From IMG/VR virus record IMGVR_UViG_2721755497_000004: DNA of 47,379 bases; one strand, 5' to 3'. Positions 2,360 to 36,483 of this stretch are shown one piece after another (positions within the stretch are counted from its first letter, which is position 1; the number at the start of each line of letters is the position of its first letter). The notes beneath the pieces were generated by a model. The model saw nothing but the letters and a program-made list of their open reading frames with translations. It ran no database searches and was not told the origin of the DNA. Source of the DNA: a virus (lineage: Duplodnaviria; Heunggongvirae; Uroviricota; Caudoviricetes). Position numbers and translations under genes: made by a program.

Positions 2360-2688
2360 TAAAAATCGTGGTTTACAGGATTAAAAAGGTGCTATCCGGA
2401 ACCGGAATTCACACAGTGAACTGTGGGTGATCCAGATAATGAGCACTACCGTGATACAAATCACGGTGGTTTTTAACGGTTTTTGCGACACAGAACTTGC
2501 TCCTTATTACGGAGAGGCGCTAACCTGCCACTTGCTTAAGGTAGACGGTTCAGGGCCTCGGGTTAACATTGAAGTTGACTCGGGGCCTTTTCACATCAGG
2601 CCTTCAGGTGTTCCCTCCGGCCATCAGCCAAAGGCACCCGCGCATACTGTACGGTTTTATATCCTTCCGGCAATTCCGGTCATCATGT

Positions 2689-8595: not shown

Positions 8596-9759
8596 TCAGA
8601 ACTGATAAGTCATCCCAACAGCAACGATATTATCTGTCGCAATACCGGCTTTCTGGGTAAATTCGCTTTCATCAATCAGGTTAATTTTATAATCAACATA
8701 AGTGGACATATTTTTGTTAAAGTAATAAGTCGCACCGACATCAATATATTTAACCAGATCCTGGTCGCCATGGTTCACACCACCAACCATAACATCCTGT
8801 CCGCGGGACTGCAGATAAGCCAGAGATGGACGCAGGCCAAAATCGAACTGATACTGAGCAACCATTTCAAGGTTTTGTGCTTTATCCGCAACCCCGGTAT
8901 CACCAAAAGTGGTCATATTCTGGGTTTCGGAATAAATTGCAGCCAGATACAGATTGTTTGCATCATATTTAAGGCCAGTCCCCCACATCTCAGCATACTT
9001 ACCTTTTGCAACGCTGCCGGAATCAACGGACACTTCTTTTTCCGTCACATCCCCCGTTAAAGGATCTTTGACTTCAATAGTTTTGCTACCATTCAGGCCA
9101 TTAACCTGCTTACCTGTACGATCTGACTTAGTATACGCTGCCACAAAACCAAAACCATCAAACTCATAGCTGGCAGAGAAACCATATCCATCACCATTAG
9201 ACTTCTGGAGGTCATCTCGCTCATTTTTTCCCTGATACTGGGCTGCAAAGTTAAGACCATCCACCAGTCCGAAGAAATCTGTATTGCGGTAAGTCAGCAC
9301 TCCGGAAGTACGAGCAGTCATGAAGTTATCAGTCTGCGTCCAGCCATCGCCACCAAATTCTGGCAGAACGTCTGTATACGAACCGACATCATAAGCGATA
9401 CCATAATTACGCCCGTAATCAATGCTACCTAAATCAGCGAATTTCAAACCGGCAAATGCCAGACGGGTTTTATTGCCTGCCGTCCCTTCAGACTCGGCCT
9501 TATTACCTGAAAACTGATATTCCCAGTGACCAAAACCTGTCAGTTGATCATTGATCTGAGTCTCACCTTTAAAACCAAGACGTGCATAGGTCTTATCGCC
9601 ATCATCACCTTTATCGTCTGAGAAGTAATGGAGAGCAGTTACACGACCATAAAGATCCAGCTTATTACCATCTTTATTATAAACTTCTGCTGCCTGAGCC
9701 CCCGCAGCAAACATCACTGCCACTGCAACAGCAGAAAGTGCCACTGTCATTTTTTTCAT
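8596..9759 (-). CDS. OmpC/NmpC/Lc-family outer membrane porin (phage moron)
   Basis: 387-aa ORF with cleavable signal peptide (…[10 protein letters not shown]), enterobacterial general-porin motifs and C-terminal ...GMTYQF; flanked by AT-rich DNA; inserted between tail genes M and L. Confidence 0.9.
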
Positions 9760-20853: not shown

Positions 20854-21056
20854 AACCTCACTCCCAGCGGACGACGGCGACACCGGGTTGTCCCCAGTAC
20901 CGACTCCGCATCATTAATCGCCCGGTTAAGCTCATCCAGAGAAGCCGCCGTATATTCAATTCTGCGACCATCTTTCTGGACAGACACCACCCGTTTACCG
21001 GTTAATAAATCAAGGCGCGCCTGACGCAGCGCCTGCAGTTCAGCGACTGTAACCAT
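20850..21056 (-). CDS. W: head-tail joining protein W
   Basis: 68-aa ORF, ...LTGKRVVSVQKDGRRIEYTAAS... as lambda gpW; stop overlaps B start. Confidence 0.85.
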   Translation of the reverse strand: MVTVAELQALRQARLDLLTGKRVVSVQKDGRRIEYTAASLDELNRAINDAESVLGTTRCRRRPLGVRL

Positions 21057-22968
21057 TCACTCCTCCGGACAGCTTCGCTGCCAGTTCTTTAAGGGTTGGC
21101 CGGGTCGTCTCTTCTTCCCGGGATTTTGCCAGTACAGCCAGATCAAGCTGCCAGCGTTGCACGGACACACGTAATGCCGCGTAGGCATACACCAGGCAGT
21201 CCAGCGCTTCGTTACGCCGCTTTTTGTTATCCCACAGCAGACGCATCTTTCCTTTTTCCCACTTCTCCACAAGCTCCTCCGCGACCAGTTGCTGCGCCTC
21301 TGTCTGCGAAAAAATCTCCGGATCATCAGGAAAACGGATGGCATATGACGTGGCTTCATCCGCAGGCATGGGATCGGCTTTCATACGGGCATAGAGAATT
21401 TCTTTTGCGGTGTCCGTCCCCACTTCACACAGATACACGCCCCGCTGATTGCGGGTTTTTGGCATGGTGATCACCGGCTTGCCATAGACAGATGCGCCTT
21501 TTACCGGCAGCACCCGGAAAACACCGTGTTTTTTTGACCTCTGATAAACGATTTCGCCATCGATCCCCCCGGTGTCCCAGCAGACACGGGAAATGGTTAT
21601 TTCGGTACCGTCTGCATGGCGGTATTTTTTGTTGATCGCCGCATCCACACGTAACAGCGTCTCTTCCTCATCAGGACGCCCCATAATGATGATTTTATCC
21701 ACCAGAAAGGCTTCCTCTCCCGGAGCCCATCCCCAGACATACATCTCAAAACGGTTTCGCTGCGAGTCAATACCCGCCGTCAGATAAACCACCCGGGCAG
21801 GCACCGCCGCCGTGTAATGAACAACCTTATCCATCAGTACCTGGTGATCGAGTTTTTCGCCCACGGCCTCTTCCCAGGTCTCGCCCAGCGTGGTGTTCAC
21901 AAAGGTTTTCAGGCCGTTGGGATCTTTCAGTGCATCCAGCCAGTCATAGACAATCTGTACCCAGGTGGTGAACGGACTGTACGCCGTCCAGATATGGAAC
22001 GTGATGGAGCGCGGCGGCGGAATTTCATTACCCGCAGCGCTGAAAAACGTCAGACCGTCACGGGTCCACATGCCCGTGTTTTCACAGATCCACCGCCCGT
22101 TGCTCTGGTCAAGTTCAGACTGACGGATCACGCAACCATTATGTTCACAGAGGTAGAAAACACTTTCGGGTCTGTCCTTCTCCCATTTAAGGCCAAAAGG
22201 CGTGGACTCATCGCCAAATTTCAGATACTGCTCCTCCCCACAGTGCGGGCAGGGCACATAAAAACGCATGAAATGTGCCGACTCGTTAGCGGCTTTTTCG
22301 ATCTGGCAGGTGCCTTTGATTTTAGGCGTCGAGCCGCGAATGGATTTTGGCCATACAGAGCCCTCAATACGTTTATCCCCCAGCAGGGTTGGCGAACCCT
22401 CTTTTTCGACATCCGGCTCGAACGAGGAAAGCTCGTCATAACAGACCACATCCACGGATTTTTCACGGTAGTTTTTGGCGGCAGCACCACCCAGGCACCA
22501 GAAGCCCACACCCGATGAAAAGCGTTTCAGCGTGAGAGTATTATCACGATGTTTACGACCCAGCCATGGGGAAAGGTCTTTCAGGCATGGCACGTCCCGA
22601 ATCGTCGCCTCCACATGAGACTTCATAAAATCTTCAGCGGCAGAATCCGTAGGCTGAAAAAGCAGACTGTTTCGGGATTTATGCTCAATAAAATACCCGA
22701 TCACCCCCAGCAACATCTTTGTATAGCCAACACGGGCAGATTTAATCAGATTAACAGTGCGGCTCTGATCATTCCCCATACTGTTCATGATGGCGATCTG
22801 GAATGGCAGCGTTTTCCATTCGCCGTCACCGTATGAGGATTCTTTAGGCAGATAATAATTTTGATCAGCCCATTCAACTGCCGTCATCGGTACAACCCTG
22901 ACCAGAGGCTGCAGCGCAACCGAAACGGCAGCCATCATATTATTCAGTTGTTGCTCTGATATATTCAT
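21040..22968 (-). CDS. A: terminase large subunit A
   Basis: Start at the MNISEQQLNNMM Met; matches lambda gpA along its length (…AVEWADQNYYLPKESSYGDGEWKTLPFQ…). Confidence 0.95.
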   Translation of the reverse strand: MNISEQQLNNMMAAVSVALQPLVRVVPMTAVEWADQNYYLPKESSYGDGEWKTLPFQIAIMNSMGNDQSRTVNLIKSARVGYTKMLLGVIGYFIEHKSRNSLLFQPTDSAAEDFMKSHVEATIRDVPCLKDLSPWLGRKHRDNTLTLKRFSSGVGFWCLGGAAAKNYREKSVDVVCYDELSSFEPDVEKEGSPTLLGDKRIEGSVWPKSIRGSTPKIKGTCQIEKAANESAHFMRFYVPCPHCGEEQYLKFGDESTPFGLKWEKDRPESVFYLCEHNGCVIRQSELDQSNGRWICENTGMWTRDGLTFFSAAGNEIPPPRSITFHIWTAYSPFTTWVQIVYDWLDALKDPNGLKTFVNTTLGETWEEAVGEKLDHQVLMDKVVHYTAAVPARVVYLTAGIDSQRNRFEMYVWGWAPGEEAFLVDKIIIMGRPDEEETLLRVDAAINKKYRHADGTEITISRVCWDTGGIDGEIVYQRSKKHGVFRVLPVKGASVYGKPVITMPKTRNQRGVYLCEVGTDTAKEILYARMKADPMPADEATSYAIRFPDDPEIFSQTEAQQLVAEELVEKWEKGKMRLLWDNKKRRNEALDCLVYAYAALRVSVQRWQLDLAVLAKSREEETTRPTLKELAAKLSGGVNGYSR

Positions 22969-23449
22969 CAAGTAAATCCGGTAATTTATCCCCTGCCCGC
23001 GCACACTGATTTGCGCCCTTTGCAATAAGGGTTTTCAGATGTTCAATATGACGTGGCGTTAAATCCGGGAACTGTCGCTGCATGGATAAAGGGATGGAAT
23101 CAAGCGTACTGGATAACGCCATTGCCAGCTTACTGAGGGCAAAAATACAGAATCCGGTGTCGATCAGTTTTCCTTTTGACACCTCATTTTTTAGCTGTTG
23201 TGTAACGGCCTGTTCTGCTGTCAGTTCCCATCTGGCAATAAGCAATTTCTCTTCATAATCTTCTTCCGGCTCACCATCAGACACATCGTTTTTACTTCTC
23301 CTCAGATACGATATGTAAAAATCACGCCAGGCATCCAGATCCAGTTGCCCTCGCTTATTCGAGACCGGAGCACCCGGTAATTTCTGCAATCTGCGAAGCT
23401 GGCGATCGGTCAGACTTAAATGCCTGGCAACTTCAGTCTGCGTAGCCAC
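22940..23449 (-). CDS. nu1: terminase small subunit (Nu1-like)
   Basis: 169-aa ORF immediately downstream of cos, N-terminal HTH, central/C-terminal similarity to lambda Nu1 (…FCIFALSKLA…LPLSMQRQFPDL…LLDEYI). Confidence 0.8.
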   Translation of the reverse strand: MATQTEVARHLSLTDRQLRRLQKLPGAPVSNKRGQLDLDAWRDFYISYLRRSKNDVSDGEPEEDYEEKLLIARWELTAEQAVTQQLKNEVSKGKLIDTGFCIFALSKLAMALSSTLDSIPLSMQRQFPDLTPRHIEHLKTLIAKGANQCARAGDKLPDLLDEYIRATTE

Positions 23450-23595: not shown

Positions 23596-23631
23596 GATCC
23601 CGGAAAATTTTCATAAATAGTGAAAACGCGC

Positions 23632-23643
23632 GAGGTCGCCGCC
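23632..23643 (-). other. cosN cohesive-end site (GGGCGGCGACCT on minus strand)
   Basis: Exact 12-nt lambda cohesive end sequence, followed on the minus strand by sequence closely resembling the lambda left end. Confidence 0.8.
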
Positions 23644-23678
23644 CCGTAGCCTGCCGGATCGCCGGAAAGGACCCACAA

Positions 23679-23695
23679 AATGATAATAATTATCA
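23679..23695. promoter_or_regulatory. 17-bp perfect palindrome ATGATAATAATTATCAT (Fur-box-like)
   Basis: Inverted GATAAT hexamers (GATAAT-n-ATTATC), about 150 bp upstream of the ylcI-like and cytochrome b561 cargo genes. Confidence 0.3.
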
Positions 23696-23843
23696 TATAC
23701 ATGTCACAACGTGCGTGTACGCCATCAAACCACGTCAAATAATCAATTTTGGCGCAGGTGTCGTATTAATTGATCCGCATCAACTTAACGTAAAAACAAC
23801 TTCAGACAATACAAATCAACGACACTGAATACGGGGCAACCTC

Positions 23844-24038
23844 ATGTCAACTAAGAATAGAACCCGCAGAACAACAACCCGCAACATCCGCTTTCCTAAC
23901 CAAATGATTGAACAAATCAACATCGCTCTTGATCAAAAAGGGTCCGGGAATTTCTCAGCCTGGGTCATTGAAGCCTGCCGTCGGAGACTAACGTCAGAAA
24001 AGAGAGCATATACATCAATCCAAAGTGATGATGAATGA
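23844..24038 (+). CDS. YlcI-like small basic protein (ribbon-helix-helix-like)
   Basis: 64-aa ORF, Arg/Thr-rich N-terminus then RNIRFPNQMIEQINIAL; located between cos and the lysis genes on the opposite strand. Confidence 0.5.
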   Translation: MSTKNRTRRTTTRNIRFPNQMIEQINIALDQKGSGNFSAWVIEACRRRLTSEKRAYTSIQSDDE

Positions 24039-24403
24039 ACATCCCGGTTTCTTCCACCATCGCACCGGAAAAGCGACTATGAGGGTAACCCTGCGTCTGT
24101 CAGCACAGTAAAACCCGGTATGCATCGCTTTTGATTATCTCCGCACACTCGTGCAGAGGAGTATCCCGTAATGGCTGCGGTCTCTGTTAATGCGGGAACA
24201 CGGCGACAATACAGCGCCAGTTATGGGTATGAAAATCCTCACCAGCGCAAAGCTATATCAACCTGTAGTGATGCAAAATTACCCGTAGCAAAAGGTATCT
24301 CCGCACATATGCAAGAACACAGCCTTAAAAACTCAGATGAAATAATGATTTGTTAAGATTTATATTATATGTTCGACATGGTACAACACTTAAGGGATGA
24401 AAT

Positions 24404-24946
24404 ATGAACAGATACTCTAAACTTCAAATTCAATTACATTGGCTGACTCTCGTATTAATAGCTATAGCCTGTGCTGCAATGGAACTTCGAGGTTTGTTTC
24501 CTAAAGGGTCTTCCTCCTATTTGCTTATGAGAGAAACACATTACAATGCTGGTATATTTATTCTTCTACTGATGATAATAAGAGTAATTATCAATAATAA
24601 ATATATAACACCAGCTATTACGCCGCCCCCACCTGCATGGCAAATGATATCAGCCAAATTCATGCAAACCCTGTTATACATATCTTTTTTGGTGTTACCA
24701 GTATCAGGACTTGCAATCATGGTTTTTGGAGGTAAAGCATGGAGCCTTCTGGGGATTGATATTCCCACTTTCGCTAACACCGACGGAGAAGTAAAATCCG
24801 TAGCCAAAACTATTCATGAATCACTTGCAAATATTGGTTATTTATTAATCACACTCCATGCTGGCGCTGCATTAATTCATCATTATATTCAGAAGGACAA
24901 TACACTTGTCAGAATGCTCCCTGAGCACCAGCATGATAAAAAGTGA
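24404..24946 (+). CDS. cytochrome b561 family protein (CybB-like, moron)
   Basis: 180-aa ORF with conserved b561 motifs (…YSKLQIQLHWL…, …HESLANIGYLLITLHAGAALIHHYIQKDNTLVRMLP), four predicted TM helices, AT-rich, RBS AAGGGA. Confidence 0.8.
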   Translation: MNRYSKLQIQLHWLTLVLIAIACAAMELRGLFPKGSSSYLLMRETHYNAGIFILLLMIIRVIINNKYITPAITPPPPAWQMISAKFMQTLLYISFLVLPVSGLAIMVFGGKAWSLLGIDIPTFANTDGEVKSVAKTIHESLANIGYLLITLHAGAALIHHYIQKDNTLVRMLPEHQHDKK

Positions 24947-24968
24947 GGAAGAGAAGAATCATCACTCT

Positions 24969-24992
24969 GACAGGTATTTTATAATACCTGTC
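24969..24992. terminator. perfect 10-bp hairpin between convergent cytochrome b561 and Rz genes
   Basis: GACAGGTATT-TTAT-AATACCTGTC; no clear U-run on either strand. Confidence 0.4.
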
Positions 24993-25020
24993 ACACTCTG
25001 TACCTCAGTTTCAGTGACTA

Positions 25021-25527
25021 TTAATACGTCTCTGTCAGATAACTTGAATCTCTGACTGAATTATAAATGCGTTCACATGTCAATCCAGCGCGGTAATTTT
25101 CGTCAGCGCGTTTAGCATAATATCCAGCTTCTTCTGCAAGGCTTCCGAGCATGTCGGCGAGCATTGCGACGTTGCTTTCGATTGTTTTGCTTCTGACGGT
25201 AGCGGCAATATTTGCGGTATGCTCTGCCGCTTCCAGTCTGACGGTAAGCTTTGTTGCTTTTTCCCGCAACTGACTAACAGTGGCAGATAAACCAGCAGCA
25301 GTAGCATTGGCTTTGACAGCTTTCTCTTGTGCATCTTTGACAGCCTCATCACGGGCAACAATACGCCCCTGTTCAATCATCCTGACAGCAATCTGCGTAT
25401 TAACAATCTGCGACGACTCTTCACTGTCCCGCTCAGCCCATTTCGTTTGCCATTCTCTTTCACACCAGACATTTCCAGCAATAAATGAGCCAATTGACAG
25501 CAATACAATGGCCACAAGCTTAATCAA
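25021..25527 (-). CDS. Rz: Rz-like i-spanin
   Basis: 168-aa ORF after the endolysin: N-terminal TM segment then long coiled-coil; apparent TTG start overlapping the endolysin stop. Confidence 0.55.
   Translation of the reverse strand: MIKLVAIVLLSIGSFIAGNVWCEREWQTKWAERDSEESSQIVNTQIAVRMIEQGRIVARDEAVKDAQEKAVKANATAAGLSATVSQLREKATKLTVRLEAAEHTANIAATVRSKTIESNVAMLADMLGSLAEEAGYYAKRADENYRAGLTCERIYNSVRDSSYLTETY
25080..25334 (-). CDS. Rz1: Rz1-like o-spanin lipoprotein embedded in Rz (+1 frame)
   Basis: Embedded ORF with lipoprotein signal MHKRKLSKPMLLLLVYLPLLVS-C and Pro-containing mature part; start codon uncertain. Confidence 0.45.
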   Translation of the reverse strand: MHKRKLSKPMLLLLVYLPLLVSCGKKQQSLPSDWKRQSIPQILPLPSEAKQSKATSQCSPTCSEALQKKLDIMLNALTKITALD

Positions 25528-26057
25528 TTATCTATCCCCCAGCACGTCAGCATGCTTTCCTGGTCACGCCGTGATACCTGACCAGAGCAGTTGTTTGAGC
25601 GAATACGGCAGTCTTTGCCACCATCCTTAATCCACCAGCGAATCGCCTCGCAGGCACCTTTACGATCACCGGCATTAAGCCGCTTATAAAACGTCGACGG
25701 GAAACACTTACCTGGGCCAATGTTGTACGGACAGAACGACGCGATACCTGCTTTCTGCGGTTCAGTCAGCGGTACCTGGATATTTTCCTCCACCCACGCC
25801 AGCGCCTTATTGCGCTCGATGGCGTTCACCTGCTCGCATTTTGTCTTCGTCAGTTTCATGCCAGGAACGACAGGCTTACCGTCCACCATTGTGGCACCAC
25901 GGCAGATGGTCCAGATACCCGTACCATCACGGTATGCTGTTATGTGGTTGCCTTCCTTTTCATCCAGAAACTGGTCGAGAATTTCAGGCGCAGAAGCCCC
26001 TGCGGCAATCAGCGCCAGAACGGCAGCCGACAGGCCGTATCTGATTTTTGTGTTCAT
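25524..26057 (-). CDS. R: SAR endolysin (T4-lysozyme-like muramidase, phage 21 R type)
   Basis: 177-aa ORF; N-terminal Gly/Ala-rich signal-anchor-release segment (LSAAVLALIAAGASA); catalytic E-x8-D-x5-T spacing in EGNHITAYRDGTGIWT. Confidence 0.9.
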   Translation of the reverse strand: MNTKIRYGLSAAVLALIAAGASAPEILDQFLDEKEGNHITAYRDGTGIWTICRGATMVDGKPVVPGMKLTKTKCEQVNAIERNKALAWVEENIQVPLTEPQKAGIASFCPYNIGPGKCFPSTFYKRLNAGDRKGACEAIRWWIKDGGKDCRIRSNNCSGQVSRRDQESMLTCWGIDN

Positions 26058-29812: not shown

Positions 29813-29847
29813 TGCAGCCCGTTACCATTCGTAGCGGGCTTTTTTTG
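29813..29847 (+). terminator. plus-strand hairpin plus T7 run
   Basis: AGCCCG...CGGGCT stem followed by TTTTTTT. Confidence 0.45.
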
Positions 29848-29850
29848 TCC

Positions 29851-29876
29851 ATAAAAAAGCCCCTCCGGAGAGGGGC
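29851..29876 (-). terminator. minus-strand intrinsic terminator (GCCCCTC-CGGA-GAGGGGC plus U6)
   Basis: Perfect 7-bp GC stem preceded on the plus strand by AAAAAA; lies downstream (minus sense) of repeat element A. Confidence 0.55.
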
Positions 29877-29907
29877 ATACTAGCTATATATCCATTTATC
29901 ATTGGCT

Positions 29908-30037
29908 GCGTGGTGCCGGGTGCCTCCCGGTGAGCTCAGCCTGGTGTCACTGAGCCCGCACATTCTCGATCCAAGTTATCGTCGGAGATAATACCTGATA
30001 CACCAGACGCCCCTCCGCACAGGGGGATTCACCACGC
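29908..30037 (-). repeat. structured repeat element A (closing helix GCGTGGTG/CACCACGC)
   Basis: 5' arm plus CCGGG-TGCCT-CCCGG hairpin ... variable core ... CCCCT-CCGCAC-AGGGG hairpin plus GATT plus 3' arm; strand assigned from the flanking terminators. Confidence 0.7.
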
Positions 30038-30265
30038 GCAGAGAAGGATACTGAACACTATTTTCTCCAGGCAATATGCAATAACATGAAGTGTGAGATG
30101 ACTTACAATTATAAAAAACAGCCTACAGAATACTCCTAAATAAAGCCATATCAAAATGAGTAACACAAAAAGGAACCAGGCAAAAATTTACGAGCAGGTA
30201 TTATCCAGCAACAGTTCAGACGCCATAACTTATTGCCGATAGCTACCATCAATAATTTCTTTCAT

Positions 30266-30289
30266 AAAAAAGCCCCTCTGAAGAGGGGC
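30266..30289 (-). terminator. minus-strand intrinsic terminator (GCCCCTC-TGAA-GAGGGGC plus U6)
   Basis: Near-identical copy of the element A terminator, downstream (minus sense) of element B. Confidence 0.55.
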
Positions 30290-30316
30290 TGACATACGCA
30301 TTTGCTTTCATCATCA

Positions 30317-30439
30317 ATATGGCGCCGGGTGCCTCCCGGTGCTCCATAACTGATTAATATGGAACGCGGTTTCATTCAGTTGCATTCATGAATAACACTC
30401 TAATCAGTCCGCCCCGCCGCTTAGGGGGATTCGCCATAT
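30317..30439 (-). repeat. structured repeat element B (closing helix ATATGGCG/CGCCATAT, compensatory change)
   Basis: Same architecture as A; terminal helix sequence differs from A but remains perfectly complementary. Confidence 0.7.
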
Positions 30440-30574
30440 AAATTGAAAGTACTGAACACATCTGTCACAAACAATATGCAATTGTATGAATTGTGAGATT
30501 ATTATCAATAACACAAAATTACAGCTCTAGTACATAAACAGCAGATTAAACAAGAACAACAAAAGTATTGAATT

Positions 30575-30700
30575 GCACGGTGCCGGGTGCCTCCCGGTGA
30601 ATTCTGCAATGACCAGACAGAATCCGCAACTTGCTACTAACGCTAATGCGACCAAGCCTAACAGTCATTATGCCCCTCCGCACAGGGGGATTCACCATGC
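30575..30700 (-). repeat. structured repeat element C (closing helix GCACGGTG/CACCATGC, one mismatch)
   Basis: Same conserved hairpins GGTGCCGGGTGCCTCCCGGTGA and CCCCTCCGCACAGGGGGATTCACCA; different variable core. Confidence 0.7.
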
Positions 30701-30829
30701 GCTAAAAAAATACAAAACGTCACGTCACTCTGACAATACGAAGCACCATAAAATGTGAGTTATTTATCAATTCTTAATTCTGGTTACAGGAATATTCCGA
30801 ATCAAATCTTTAAAAAAAGAAATTCAAAT

Positions 30830-30932
30830 GCATGGTGCCGGGTGCCTCCCGGTGAACAGACCGTCCGTGATACCAGTCGGCAACACAGGAAATTAATGGT
30901 ATCACCCCACCGCACAGGGGGATTCACCATGC
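30830..30932 (-). repeat. structured repeat element D (closing helix GCATGGTG/CACCATGC)
   Basis: Same conserved hairpins; shorter variable core containing its own 9-bp hairpin GTGATACCA/TGGTATCAC. Confidence 0.7.
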
Positions 30933-31121
30933 AGGCGTTTTCTTAGCAAACTAACTGCGCGCCCGGCAACTCCCAACCACATAAAACGTGGAGTTTGTAG
31001 CATTTATGCACATAACTCACAGGGGTTATCTTAAAAAAAGCTGACCATGCTTCCCCGGCAACGCAATAACTTTATTCCCTGAAGTGGCATCCCCCGTATT
31101 GTCGGCAGGCTCAAAAAGGAG

Positions 31122-31587: not shown

Positions 31588-31665
31588 TGGACCGTCACCG
31601 GGGACTCGAACCCCGCATTTTCAACATAAAAAGGTTGATGCTCTTTCCTGATGAGCTAGTGACGG
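31588..31665 (-). tRNA. tRNA-like gene with 8-nt anticodon loop (possible unusual tRNA or pseudogene)
   Basis: 7-bp acceptor stem CCGTCAC/GTGACGG, encoded CCA, D arm GCTC/GAGC, T arm CGGGG-TTCGAGT-CCCCG, but anticodon arm TCAAC-CTTTTTAT-GTTGA has an 8-nt loop. Confidence 0.45.
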
Positions 31666-31667
31666 CA

Positions 31668-31742
31668 TGGTTGCCTTGCTGGATTTGAACCAGCGACCTG
31701 GCGATTATGAGTCTCTCGCTCTCACCACTGAGCTAAAGGGCC
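31668..31742 (-). tRNA. tRNA with CAU anticodon (Ile2/Met-like), acceptor and anticodon stems imperfect
   Basis: GGCCCTTTAGCTCAGTGG...CTCATAA...GCTGGTTCAAATCCAGC...CCA; D and T arms canonical; 3 terminal acceptor pairs and 2 anticodon-stem pairs mismatched; one nt short. Confidence 0.55.
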
Positions 31743-31782
31743 GGGAACAGAATAATAATGGTGCGTAATTAATTCTGCAATC

Positions 31783-36116: not shown

Positions 36117-36272
36117 TTACTCCTCAGGTTCGTAAGCTGTGAAGACAGCGACCTCCGTCTGGCCGGTTCGGATTCGTACCTCGCAGAGGTCTTTCCTCGT
36201 TACCAGTGCCGTCACTATGACGGTTAAACAGATGACGATCAGGGCGATTAACATCGCCTTTTGCTGCTTCAT
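36117..36272 (-). CDS. hokD: Hok-family type I toxin
   Basis: 51-aa MKQQKAMLIALIVICLTVIVTALVTRKDLCEVRIRTGQTEVAVFTAYEPEE, canonical Hok; nested in the longer mok-like frame starting at 36329. Confidence 0.85.
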   Translation of the reverse strand: MKQQKAMLIALIVICLTVIVTALVTRKDLCEVRIRTGQTEVAVFTAYEPEE

Positions 36273-36329
36273 AGCCTGCTTCTCCTTGCCTTTCGGCACG
36301 TAAGAGGCTAACCTAGATTTGCCGTTCAT
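36117..36329 (-). CDS. mok: Mok-like overlapping reading frame
   Basis: 70-aa frame (MNGKSRLASYVPKGKEKQA…) extending upstream of and in frame with hok. Confidence 0.45.
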   Translation of the reverse strand: MNGKSRLASYVPKGKEKQAMKQQKAMLIALIVICLTVIVTALVTRKDLCEVRIRTGQTEVAVFTAYEPEE

Positions 36330-36483
36330 AGATTGAGCCTCAGATTAATGTTAAGCGTCTTGCAGGACGCGTAATGTTAACTGGGGCTTTTCTCTATCTG
36401 CCTTTGGTGTTCATGCCTGAGACAGATAGCCTCAAGCACCCGCAGCCATTCTACTTAACTCCCGTTACCTCGCCAATATAAAA

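Follow-up and report, generated by a model that had tools for sequence, protein, structure and literature searches.

The stretch of DNA analysed here, called the window below, is the whole 47,379-nucleotide IMG/VR record IMGVR_UViG_2721755497_000004, a lambda-like E. coli prophage whose late genes are read from the minus strand. The analysis centred on positions 23679-24992, where a gene for a cytochrome b561 lies between the Rz spanin gene and the cohesive-end (cos) region, and where a palindrome resembling a Fur site lies beside cos, upstream of that gene. The original prediction had taken the gene for lysogenic-conversion cargo serving electron transfer or oxidative-stress handling, possibly regulated by iron. 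On balance, and with reasonable though far from complete confidence, we favour the explanation that the gene encodes a phage-borne YodB-type redox cytochrome with its own promoter, and that the palindrome is a separate Fur-binding element belonging to cos. The cargo gene, its control elements and its neighbours are as follows, with (+) and (-) denoting the strand.

24404-24946 (+): cytochrome b561 open reading frame (ORF) of 180 amino acids with an ATG start, YodB family; phage cargo in the place of bor
24309-24403 (+): conserved 5' regulatory region of ~95 bp, recognised by alignment with the DNA that precedes yodB genes of phages, Citrobacter and K-12
24341-24357 (+): PmrA-box-like repeat AATAAT-GATTT-GTTAAG, then 10 nt to a -10-like element
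24368-24373 (+): -10-like element TATGTT, at the conserved TAnnnT position
24392-24397 (+): ribosome-binding site (RBS) AAGGGA, 6 nt upstream of the ATG
24968-24978 / 24983-24993: perfect stem of 11 bp closed by a 4-nt loop, where the cytochrome and Rz genes converge
24218-24308: junction segment; lambda/434 homology stops at 24217 and homology to cytochrome b561 modules runs from about 24309
23844-24038 (+): gene of 64 amino acids, DUF3950 / YlcI-YnfO family (PF13132, E 5e-20; NCBIfam NF041551; phrog_949)
25021-25527 (-): Rz-type spanin gene (DUF2514; Pfam PF10721, E 2e-44), right-hand neighbour and end of the late lysis cassette
25524-26057 (-): lysozyme gene, a late gene, with a class II holin further right
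22940-23449 (-): Nu1-like terS (small terminase), a late gene
21040-23025 (-): terL (large terminase), a late gene

The cytochrome ORF runs on the strand opposite to terL, the Nu1-like terS, Rz and lysozyme. Alignment showed that this slot is occupied by bor in phages 434 and Turner, where bor has the same orientation and likewise converges on Rz, and the comparison indicates that the bor module between Rz and cos has been replaced in the window by a module of ~0.7 kb (about 24309-24993), oriented against the late operon, in which an intact cytochrome b561 gene is preceded by a conserved promoter region and followed by a 3' stem-loop. On the left side, the DNA of 23600-24217 is ~94% identical to 434, Turner and Qin, the Lambda_ev series also matches from cos to 24217, and the DUF3950 gene is part of this lambda-type backbone. 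Homology to other cytochrome modules extends from 95 bp before the ATG to near the stop codon, and on the right side Rz homology resumes at about 25044, the cytochrome-Rz junction being collinear with that of three other loci (L022-L024), in which homology is unbroken into Rz. An ORF at 24171-24356, given as 'hypothetical protein' in RefSeq, had no family match and straddles the recombination junction, and it is probably not a gene.

The cytochrome gene has a GC content of 0.38 and a GC content at third codon positions (GC3) of 0.32, in comparison to about 0.47-0.54 in the flanks; this AT-richness is common to the whole family, chromosomal yodB included. The module is homologous, with its promoter region, to chromosomal yodB of enterobacteria, and the gene is a phage moron of PF01292 in the YodB clade. 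The original prediction had described an AT-rich cargo gene with its own RBS, standing opposite the late genes in the slot of bor, and each of these points agrees with the composition, with the AAGGGA element and with the interruption of the lambda-type homology where 434 and Turner have bor. In comparison to the bor moron of lambda/434 (an Iss-like lipoprotein gene), the slot, the orientation against the late operon and the convergence with Rz are the same, as probably is the possession of a promoter of its own, whereas the proteins are unrelated, Bor being an outer-membrane lipoprotein of serum resistance and the window protein a predicted haem protein of the inner membrane.

A perfect hairpin of 10 bp had also been described after the gene; the hairpin is there, but its arms are of 11 bp. 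In a context of 77 nt it folds with -23.3 kcal/mol (z = -2.6), and no U-tract follows it on either strand. The homologous modules have hairpins of different sequence and equal strength just after the stop codon (-21.7 kcal/mol and z -3.5 for L034; -22.3 kcal/mol and z -4.4 for L010), which points to a conserved 3'-end structure between the convergent genes.

Family searches placed the protein in the prokaryotic cytochrome b561 family (Pfam PF01292, Ni_hydr_CYTB) with an E value of 6e-25 and 88.5 bits against a cut-off of 30.1, and the match was end to end, with residues 3-173 covering profile positions 1-178 of 179. The PDB sequence search gave the CybB structure 5OC0 as the only relative (E 8.6e-42). 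An AlphaFold2 (AF2) model of the 180-residue protein, built on an alignment of 48 homologues, reached a predicted local distance difference test (pLDDT) score of 92 and has four helices (H6-29, H37-66, H78-109 and H128-162); four segments were also seen in the hydropathy profile. With Foldseek, 5OC0 was again the sole significant match in the PDB, with a TM score of 0.90 and a root-mean-square deviation of 1.5 Å. Among the 48 aligned homologues, His12, His46, His138 and His152 are invariant, and these haem histidines align to H13, H45, H137 and H151 of CybB, respectively; Arg60, His159 and Asp165 are likewise invariant. The CybB-like cytochrome b561 with four transmembrane helices and histidine ligands that had been read from the sequence was in this way recovered by the family profile, the modelled helices and the alignment, in which none of the four haem histidines is lacking.

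The position of the protein within the family is shown by its identities, which are 61% to E. coli YodB, 43% to CybB and 29% to YceJ, and by its score of 163.7 bits with the CybB equivalog (NCBIfam NF008566 / PRK11513), which is below the cut-off of 170. As judged from sequence, the protein belongs to the YodB clade, separate from CybB. The fold is nevertheless that of E. coli CybB, a superoxide:ubiquinone oxidoreductase in which residues R30, R35, R38, R108 and K134 form a superoxide antenna (PMC11869295). Three of these five antenna cations are kept, as R29 (CybB R30), K34 (R35) and K135 (K134), and in addition to the haem ligands the quinone-site pair His158-Asp164 is kept as His159-Asp165. 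The differences from CybB are the lack of R38 and R108, a glutamine in place of H87, the sub-threshold equivalog score, the other clade and the phage context.

The distribution of the gene was assessed in phage records, in complete E. coli genomes and in IMG/VR. No phage-borne copy was found among 50,697 phage records (INPHARED; megablast and tblastn), and the sole tblastn match, SerU-LTIIb (KU052038), was rejected as the host yodB flanking a serU-integrated prophage. Among 5426 complete E. coli genomes the gene was present in four, the mouse isolates M1, M3 and M18 and the human isolate CI5, in all of which it is annotated as "cytochrome b" and stands in addition to a chromosomal yodB; any second copy occurs in at most about ten E. 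coli genomes. In IMG/VR, 38 prophage contigs have homologues at 59-71% identity, and at 35 of these 38 loci a holin-lysozyme(-Rz) cassette stands on the other strand, with the gene no more than a few kb downstream of it. The packaging genes beside the homologues are of at least three types, namely Nu1/A in the window, DUF1441/GpA in Salmonella (L010, L011) and HNH with P27-type terS/terL (L027). In a further Salmonella prophage (L061) the gene adjoins a lambda-type Rz (PF03245), and a Citrobacter portucalensis contig (L063) also carries a homologue. The counterpart in PHROGs is phrog_31729, with function not assigned there. The ratio of nonsynonymous to synonymous substitution rates (dN/dS) was 0.10-0.18 against distant copies. 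By these sequence comparisons the gene is a recurrent mobile cargo module under purifying selection that is absent by chance from the sequenced phage isolates.

Several other copies of the gene were seen in settings of their own. In E. coli GCA_017002875.1 (L079, 8001-15300) a 98% identical copy lies in a degraded prophage beside trpEDCBA-yciGFE, with PmrD and LpxR genes a few kb from it in the same remnant, and at another locus (L009, 4869-6540) a 68% identical homologue adjoins a gene for a Cu,Zn superoxide dismutase (Sod_Cu, sodC); both neighbourhoods are at most weak circumstantial support. At the latter locus a cos-like sequence and a Fur-type box are still found upstream of the homologue, and insertion sequence (IS) elements flank the locus. 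In Citrobacter (L005-L008, 3017-6983) the chromosomal yodB-like gene stands amid a Bor homologue, DinI and an EAL protein, which are typical phage-moron genes, and the neighbours of Salmonella STM1253 include pagC (Lom family), cspH and msgA (DinI). Perhaps the surroundings of yodB are themselves the remains of an old prophage.

With regard to the control of the cytochrome gene, the conserved core of the 5' region in the family is xxTAAK-N5-GTTAAG, followed by 10 nt and TAnnnT. We take the PmrA-box consensus to be a YTTAAK-N5-YTTAAK direct repeat overlapping the -35 region. The box of STM1253, which is the yodB orthologue according to the synteny of L059 (zinT linkage), reads TTTAAG-GTTCT-GTTAAG and has one mismatch to this consensus, and a PmrA-like repeat with no more than one mismatch was found at the same aligned position in STM1253, L061, K-12 yodB, Pragia and Hafnia. 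In the window box, the proximal half-site, the spacing and the -10 element are kept, and the distal half-site is degenerate. No consensus -35 element is conserved across the family, and the sigma-70 scan near the gene gave a sole plus-strand match, ATGAAA-18-TATATT (9/12), of a kind found at chance frequency (4 found in comparison to 4.7 expected).

STM1253 is known to be regulated by PmrA, and overexpression of PreA(QseB) induced it 30-fold in arrays and 372-fold in quantitative reverse-transcription PCR (PMC2653508). In S. Typhi, a STY1867-68 mutant was impaired in macrophage uptake and survival (PMC3344905). Because the promoter architecture of the window gene matches that of the PmrA/PreA-induced STM1253, control by regulators of the BasR(PmrA)/QseB type is our leading hypothesis for the cytochrome and would be more likely than control by Fur. 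In overall comparison, the window protein has 61% and 55% full-length identity to E. coli YodB (b1974) and Salmonella STM1253/STY1868, respectively, with the same four histidines, Arg60, His159/His160 and Asp165, a homologous promoter region, the same box-N10-TAnnnT layout and a similar AT-richness. The two known genes are chromosomal and stand beside zinT, whereas the window copy is prophage-borne, between Rz and cos, and adds a second paralogue to the cell, and it differs from them in its degenerate distal PmrA half-site and in the substitutions H88Q and K64N.

The palindrome belongs to a different set of features, which lie on the right flank of cos.

23633-23644: cosN-like cohesive-end sequence AGGTCGCCGCCC, read directly; the linear record of 434 ends immediately to its right
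23668-23674 (-): cosQ, AGGACCC on the plus strand (GGGTCCT), aligned to the 434 (OL657226) feature 'cosQ; termination of DNA packaging'
23680-23696: 17-bp perfect palindrome ATGATAAT-A-ATTATCAT, a cos-adjacent backbone element
23680-23707 (-): sigma-70-like promoter GTGACA-16 nt-TATCAT, 10/12 in a consensus scan, with its -10 and spacer inside the palindrome

The match of Turner and Qin to the window continues through the cosN-like sequence AGGTCGCCGCCC, which is presumably the left end of lambda in reverse complement. The palindrome is 6 bp from cosQ and ~36 bp from cosN, and its centre is 716 bp upstream of the cytochrome ATG, consistent with the original description of a perfect 17-bp palindrome about 700 bp upstream. 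It contains a perfect unit of TGATAATnATTATCA, which we take to be the Fur 7-1-7 motif. Fur sites were scored by consensus matching calibrated on the validated Qin site. The palindrome was the only match in the window to TGATAATNATTATCA with two or fewer mismatches (0.10 expected), and the only match to the 19-mer Fur consensus GATAATGATAATCATTATC with three or fewer (0 expected), and it consists of one match of 16/19 together with two overlapping matches of 15/19, 6 bp away.

At the same place the Qin prophage of K-12 has TGATAATGATTATCA, centred exactly 233 bp before the nohA start, and the Qin and window sites score alike on the consensus measure. The "nohA -233" site, at 22.3 bits, is among the strongest predicted Fur clusters of K-12, with 25.3 bits for the DLP12 copy (nohB); the same study (Chen et al. 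2007, PMC2189734) also lists it among predicted promoters under Fur control. The Qin nohA site was gel-shifted with 150 nM Fur (PMC2189734), and according to the account given there it had been recovered earlier by in vivo selection for Fur binding (Vassinova and Kozyrev 2000). From its sequence and place, the palindrome is the positional orthologue of the Qin nohA -233 site, so that the Fur-site likeness noted in the original prediction is well founded and has already been published for the orthologue. The sites of nohA (Qin) and nohB (DLP12) share with the window the place next to cosQ, the 7-1-7 arms and the consensus score, and the distance to the start of the Nu1 homologue is 233 bp in Qin and 239 bp in the window. 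The window site, at which Fur binding is predicted, differs from that of Qin in its central base, A instead of G, and in its flanks; it stands in an apparently intact rather than a cryptic prophage.

The results further showed that the palindrome is identical in Turner and in 434, both of which carry bor, and that in an alignment of the right flanks of 14 cos regions no block other than cosN is as well conserved, even where the surroundings have diverged. Its perfect variants differ only at the free central base, which is A in the window, 434 and Turner, G in Qin and T in L034. The promoter-like site that overlaps the palindrome points leftward to cosQ, cosN and Nu1, away from the cytochrome, and the promoter scan found no comparable -35/-10 pair on the plus strand over the palindrome. 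Between the palindrome and the cytochrome lie the DUF3950 gene and 365 bp, and in the region directly upstream of the cytochrome (24039-24403) no Fur-like match was above background (best 12/19). Because the palindrome is adjacent to cosQ, is identical in bor phages and overlaps a leftward promoter-like site toward Nu1, we do not regard it as the regulator of the cytochrome, and the suggested iron regulation of the cytochrome through the palindrome, which is 716 bp and one gene away, is unsupported.

Two further sequences of this kind were seen. Inside the cytochrome ORF, GATAATAAGAGTAATTATC at 24574-24592 (+) scores 15/19 against the Fur consensus and is contained in an imperfect inverted repeat of 13 nt (24553-24565 / 24593-24605); it is probably a by-product of AT-rich codons. 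In the IMG/VR loci L025-L045, which have HNH and P27-type terS/terL, a lambda-like stretch resembling cosN/cosQ, CCCCGTAAC...GGATTACCAGAAAG, is followed by a Fur-type palindrome (e.g., L027, 5775-5900), a pattern that suggests mosaic reuse of the cos right flank.

In the explanation that we favour, the cytochrome would be expressed in the lysogen from its own promoter, as other morons are, and the protein would be inserted in the inner membrane with two b haems bound via His12/His152 and His46/His138. Electrons would pass between the quinone pool, at a cytoplasmic-side site formed by His159-Asp165, and a periplasmic oxidant or radical, for which superoxide would by analogy with CybB be the most likely partner, giving the lysogen an extra redox defence of the envelope. 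The earlier suggestion of oxidative-stress handling may reasonably be drawn from CybB. Regulators of the BasR(PmrA)/QseB type, responsive to Fe3+ and mild acid, would control the cytochrome, and the palindrome would act as a conserved Fur-binding element that most likely represses the leftward promoter facing cos and Nu1; if active, that promoter would let transcription enter the packaging genes of an intact prophage under repression by Fur. Cu,Zn superoxide dismutases of the periplasm are also carried by prophages, as the sodC genes of Gifsy-2, Fels-1 and the O157 prophages. The cytochrome would resemble them, by analogy only, as a phage cargo acting on periplasmic superoxide, but it is a different protein in a different genome slot, and dismutation differs from oxidation to O2 with electrons delivered to quinone. 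In the literature we found nothing specific on phage-borne cytochrome b561 or on the function of yodB.

A number of observations weigh against this explanation. At the positions of the CybB antenna residues R38 and R108 the window protein has Ser37 and Gly109, and neither arginine is conserved anywhere in the YodB clade; Lys111, near the position of R108, is nearly invariant in the clade. The proton donor His87 of CybB has become Gln88 in the window lineage only, with His in all 15 other aligned sequences and Gln88 common to the proteins P0001 and P0021, and the Arg63/Lys position has become Asn64, again in the window lineage only. The Gln88 substitution is probably not disabling, because the H87A mutant of CybB keeps 50-80% of its activity (PMC11869295). 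The dN/dS rises to 0.29-0.43 against the two closest copies, and the adjacency to sodC comes from a single rearranged locus (L009). The PmrA-like box of the window has three mismatches, which is at chance level (270 such boxes found in the window in comparison to 227 expected), so that the regulation of the cytochrome rests on positional homology only. A STM1253 mutant is cited in PMC3344905 as having no virulence defect in mice. In addition, in many other prophages that do not have the DUF3950 gene, the block of cos and palindrome abuts the cytochrome module, with the box at -134 from the ATG, and given this placement there may be some influence of Fur on the cytochrome family. We take the -134 placement to be proximity through shared location, with the box still about 100 bp upstream of the inferred start.

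One alternative is that the protein is a quinol-linked reductase or detoxifier that acts on something other than superoxide, such as a periplasmic reductase of Fe3+ or other metals, or a detoxifier of lipid radicals like YceJ/LcoA-lipocalin. The separation of the YodB clade from CybB (61% in comparison to 43% identity) and the loss of the two antenna arginines are in its favour, as is the membership of the STM1253 orthologue in the PmrA/PreA regulons, since a reductase of Fe3+ would fit the Fe3+-sensing PmrA; a b561-lipocalin system is also described in PMC9113575 as detoxifying lipid peroxyl radicals. However, neither a lipocalin gene nor a YceI gene was found beside the phage copies, YceJ is only 29% identical, and metal reduction is not known from the family. 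We consider this alternative unlikely.

For the palindrome, its fixed distance from cosQ (6 bp) and from cosN (about 36 bp), and the fact that nothing else on the right of cosN is so well conserved, also where the flanking sequence diverges, could also mean that it is primarily a DNA-packaging subsite of cos or the site of another protein, with Fur binding being incidental. This is set against the perfect Fur 7-1-7 arrangement in three variants that differ only at the free central base, as selection for Fur binding predicts, and against the Qin copy, which was shifted in vitro and, as reported in PMC2189734, recovered by in vivo Fur-binding selection. That the palindrome is primarily such a site, with an incidental role of Fur, is in our view distinctly improbable.

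An iron-regulated cargo, in which Fur at the palindrome would block rightward transcription passing via DUF3950 into the cytochrome, so that the cytochrome is made under iron limitation, is very unlikely. The palindrome is a bona fide Fur-type site, and between the DUF3950 gene and the cytochrome the one terminator-like hairpin (5-bp stem, 24166-24180) is weak; in addition, the same palindrome abuts the cytochrome module at -134 in most other prophages, and the b561 paralogue yceJ of E. coli has a strong predicted Fur cluster (Table 4, PMC2189734). On the other hand, the palindrome stays fixed beside cosQ, and is identical in bor phages, whatever lies downstream, and in the window a whole gene and 716 bp intervene. 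The good promoter match over it is on the minus strand, with no -35/-10 pair found on the plus strand, and even at -134 the box would precede the inferred start by about 100 bp, which is not where Fur usually occludes a promoter. A haem protein induced by iron starvation would also be unusual.

The notion that the gene is a passenger copied from a host by illegitimate recombination, neutral or decaying and of no benefit to the lysogen, is suggested by its rarity in E. coli (4 of 5426 genomes), by the yodB, cybB and yceJ that the hosts already own, by the lineage-specific changes at two functional positions (H88Q and K/R64N), by the higher dN/dS among close relatives and by the one copy in a degraded remnant (L079), but it is very unlikely in view of an ORF that is intact in every copy examined, the dN/dS of 0.10-0.18 over long distances, the retention of promoter region, RBS and 3' hairpin, and the spread of the module to no fewer than three phage backbones in four host genera with position and orientation kept.

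The reading of a YodB-type redox cytochrome with its own promoter beside a separate Fur-binding cos element may be carried one step further, tentatively. Enterobacterial lambdoid phages would then spread a dedicated YodB-type haem protein for lysogenic conversion, switched on by BasSR/QseBC as sensors of Fe3+ and the envelope; through it, electrons of periplasmic superoxide or of other radicals made by the host would enter the quinone pool, as a phage-delivered membrane redox defence comparable to phage-borne sodC. The phages would at the same time carry a Fur operator that couples the iron status to the transcription of cos/terminase or to packaging; that both parts hold jointly we think doubtful.

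Elsewhere in the window, a second cargo gene of the prophage was found inside the tail gene cluster at 8596-9759 (-), flanked by the gene for minor tail protein L and by a tail protein upstream of the tape measure; it encodes a 387-amino-acid porin of the OmpC type ('porin OmpC' in RefSeq for the CI5 prophage; phrog_410, E 1.6e-193). Four tandem copies of the Rfam small RNA (sRNA) family STnc100 (77-133 bits) lie at 29847-30962 (-), between the tRNA/antiterminator region and a DUF6645 gene. Two phage tRNAs are at 31588-31743 (-); for the first, ARAGORN gave a 4-base anticodon 'tttt' and RefSeq tRNA-Lys, and for the second, with anticodon CAT, ARAGORN gave Met and RefSeq tRNA-Ile. A toxin-antitoxin locus of the hok/sok type is at 36267-36441 (-) (Rfam sok, 110 bits; hokD in the CI5 annotation), and a second Hok/Gef gene lies at ~2390-2500 (-), between gpJ and the tail fibre gene. 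Within 23679-24992 there were no Rfam matches at the gathering threshold, and the PADLOC models of defence systems gave no match for the cytochrome or the DUF3950 protein.

If the cytochrome is CybB-like, it would be a phage-delivered antioxidant linked to the respiratory chain, adding a membrane haem enzyme to the functions of lysogenic conversion (Bor, Lom, SodC, toxins), and it would provide a testable role for YodB/STM1253, an uncharacterised but widespread protein of the PmrA regulon. That the module recurs in one and the same slot on several phage backbones makes it a clear case of modular exchange of cargo. In lambda-type phages, the lambda-derived Qin included, a Fur operator whose orthologue has been validated stands 6 bp from cosQ and is conserved across diverged cos regions, which points to an unexplored link between iron status and late or packaging functions of the phage; if such a coupling is true, a shortage of iron would change how lambda-type prophages express their terminase or process cos. 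The chief use of the finding is as a pointer to what YodB/STM1253 does and to the unexplained Fur site next to cosQ.

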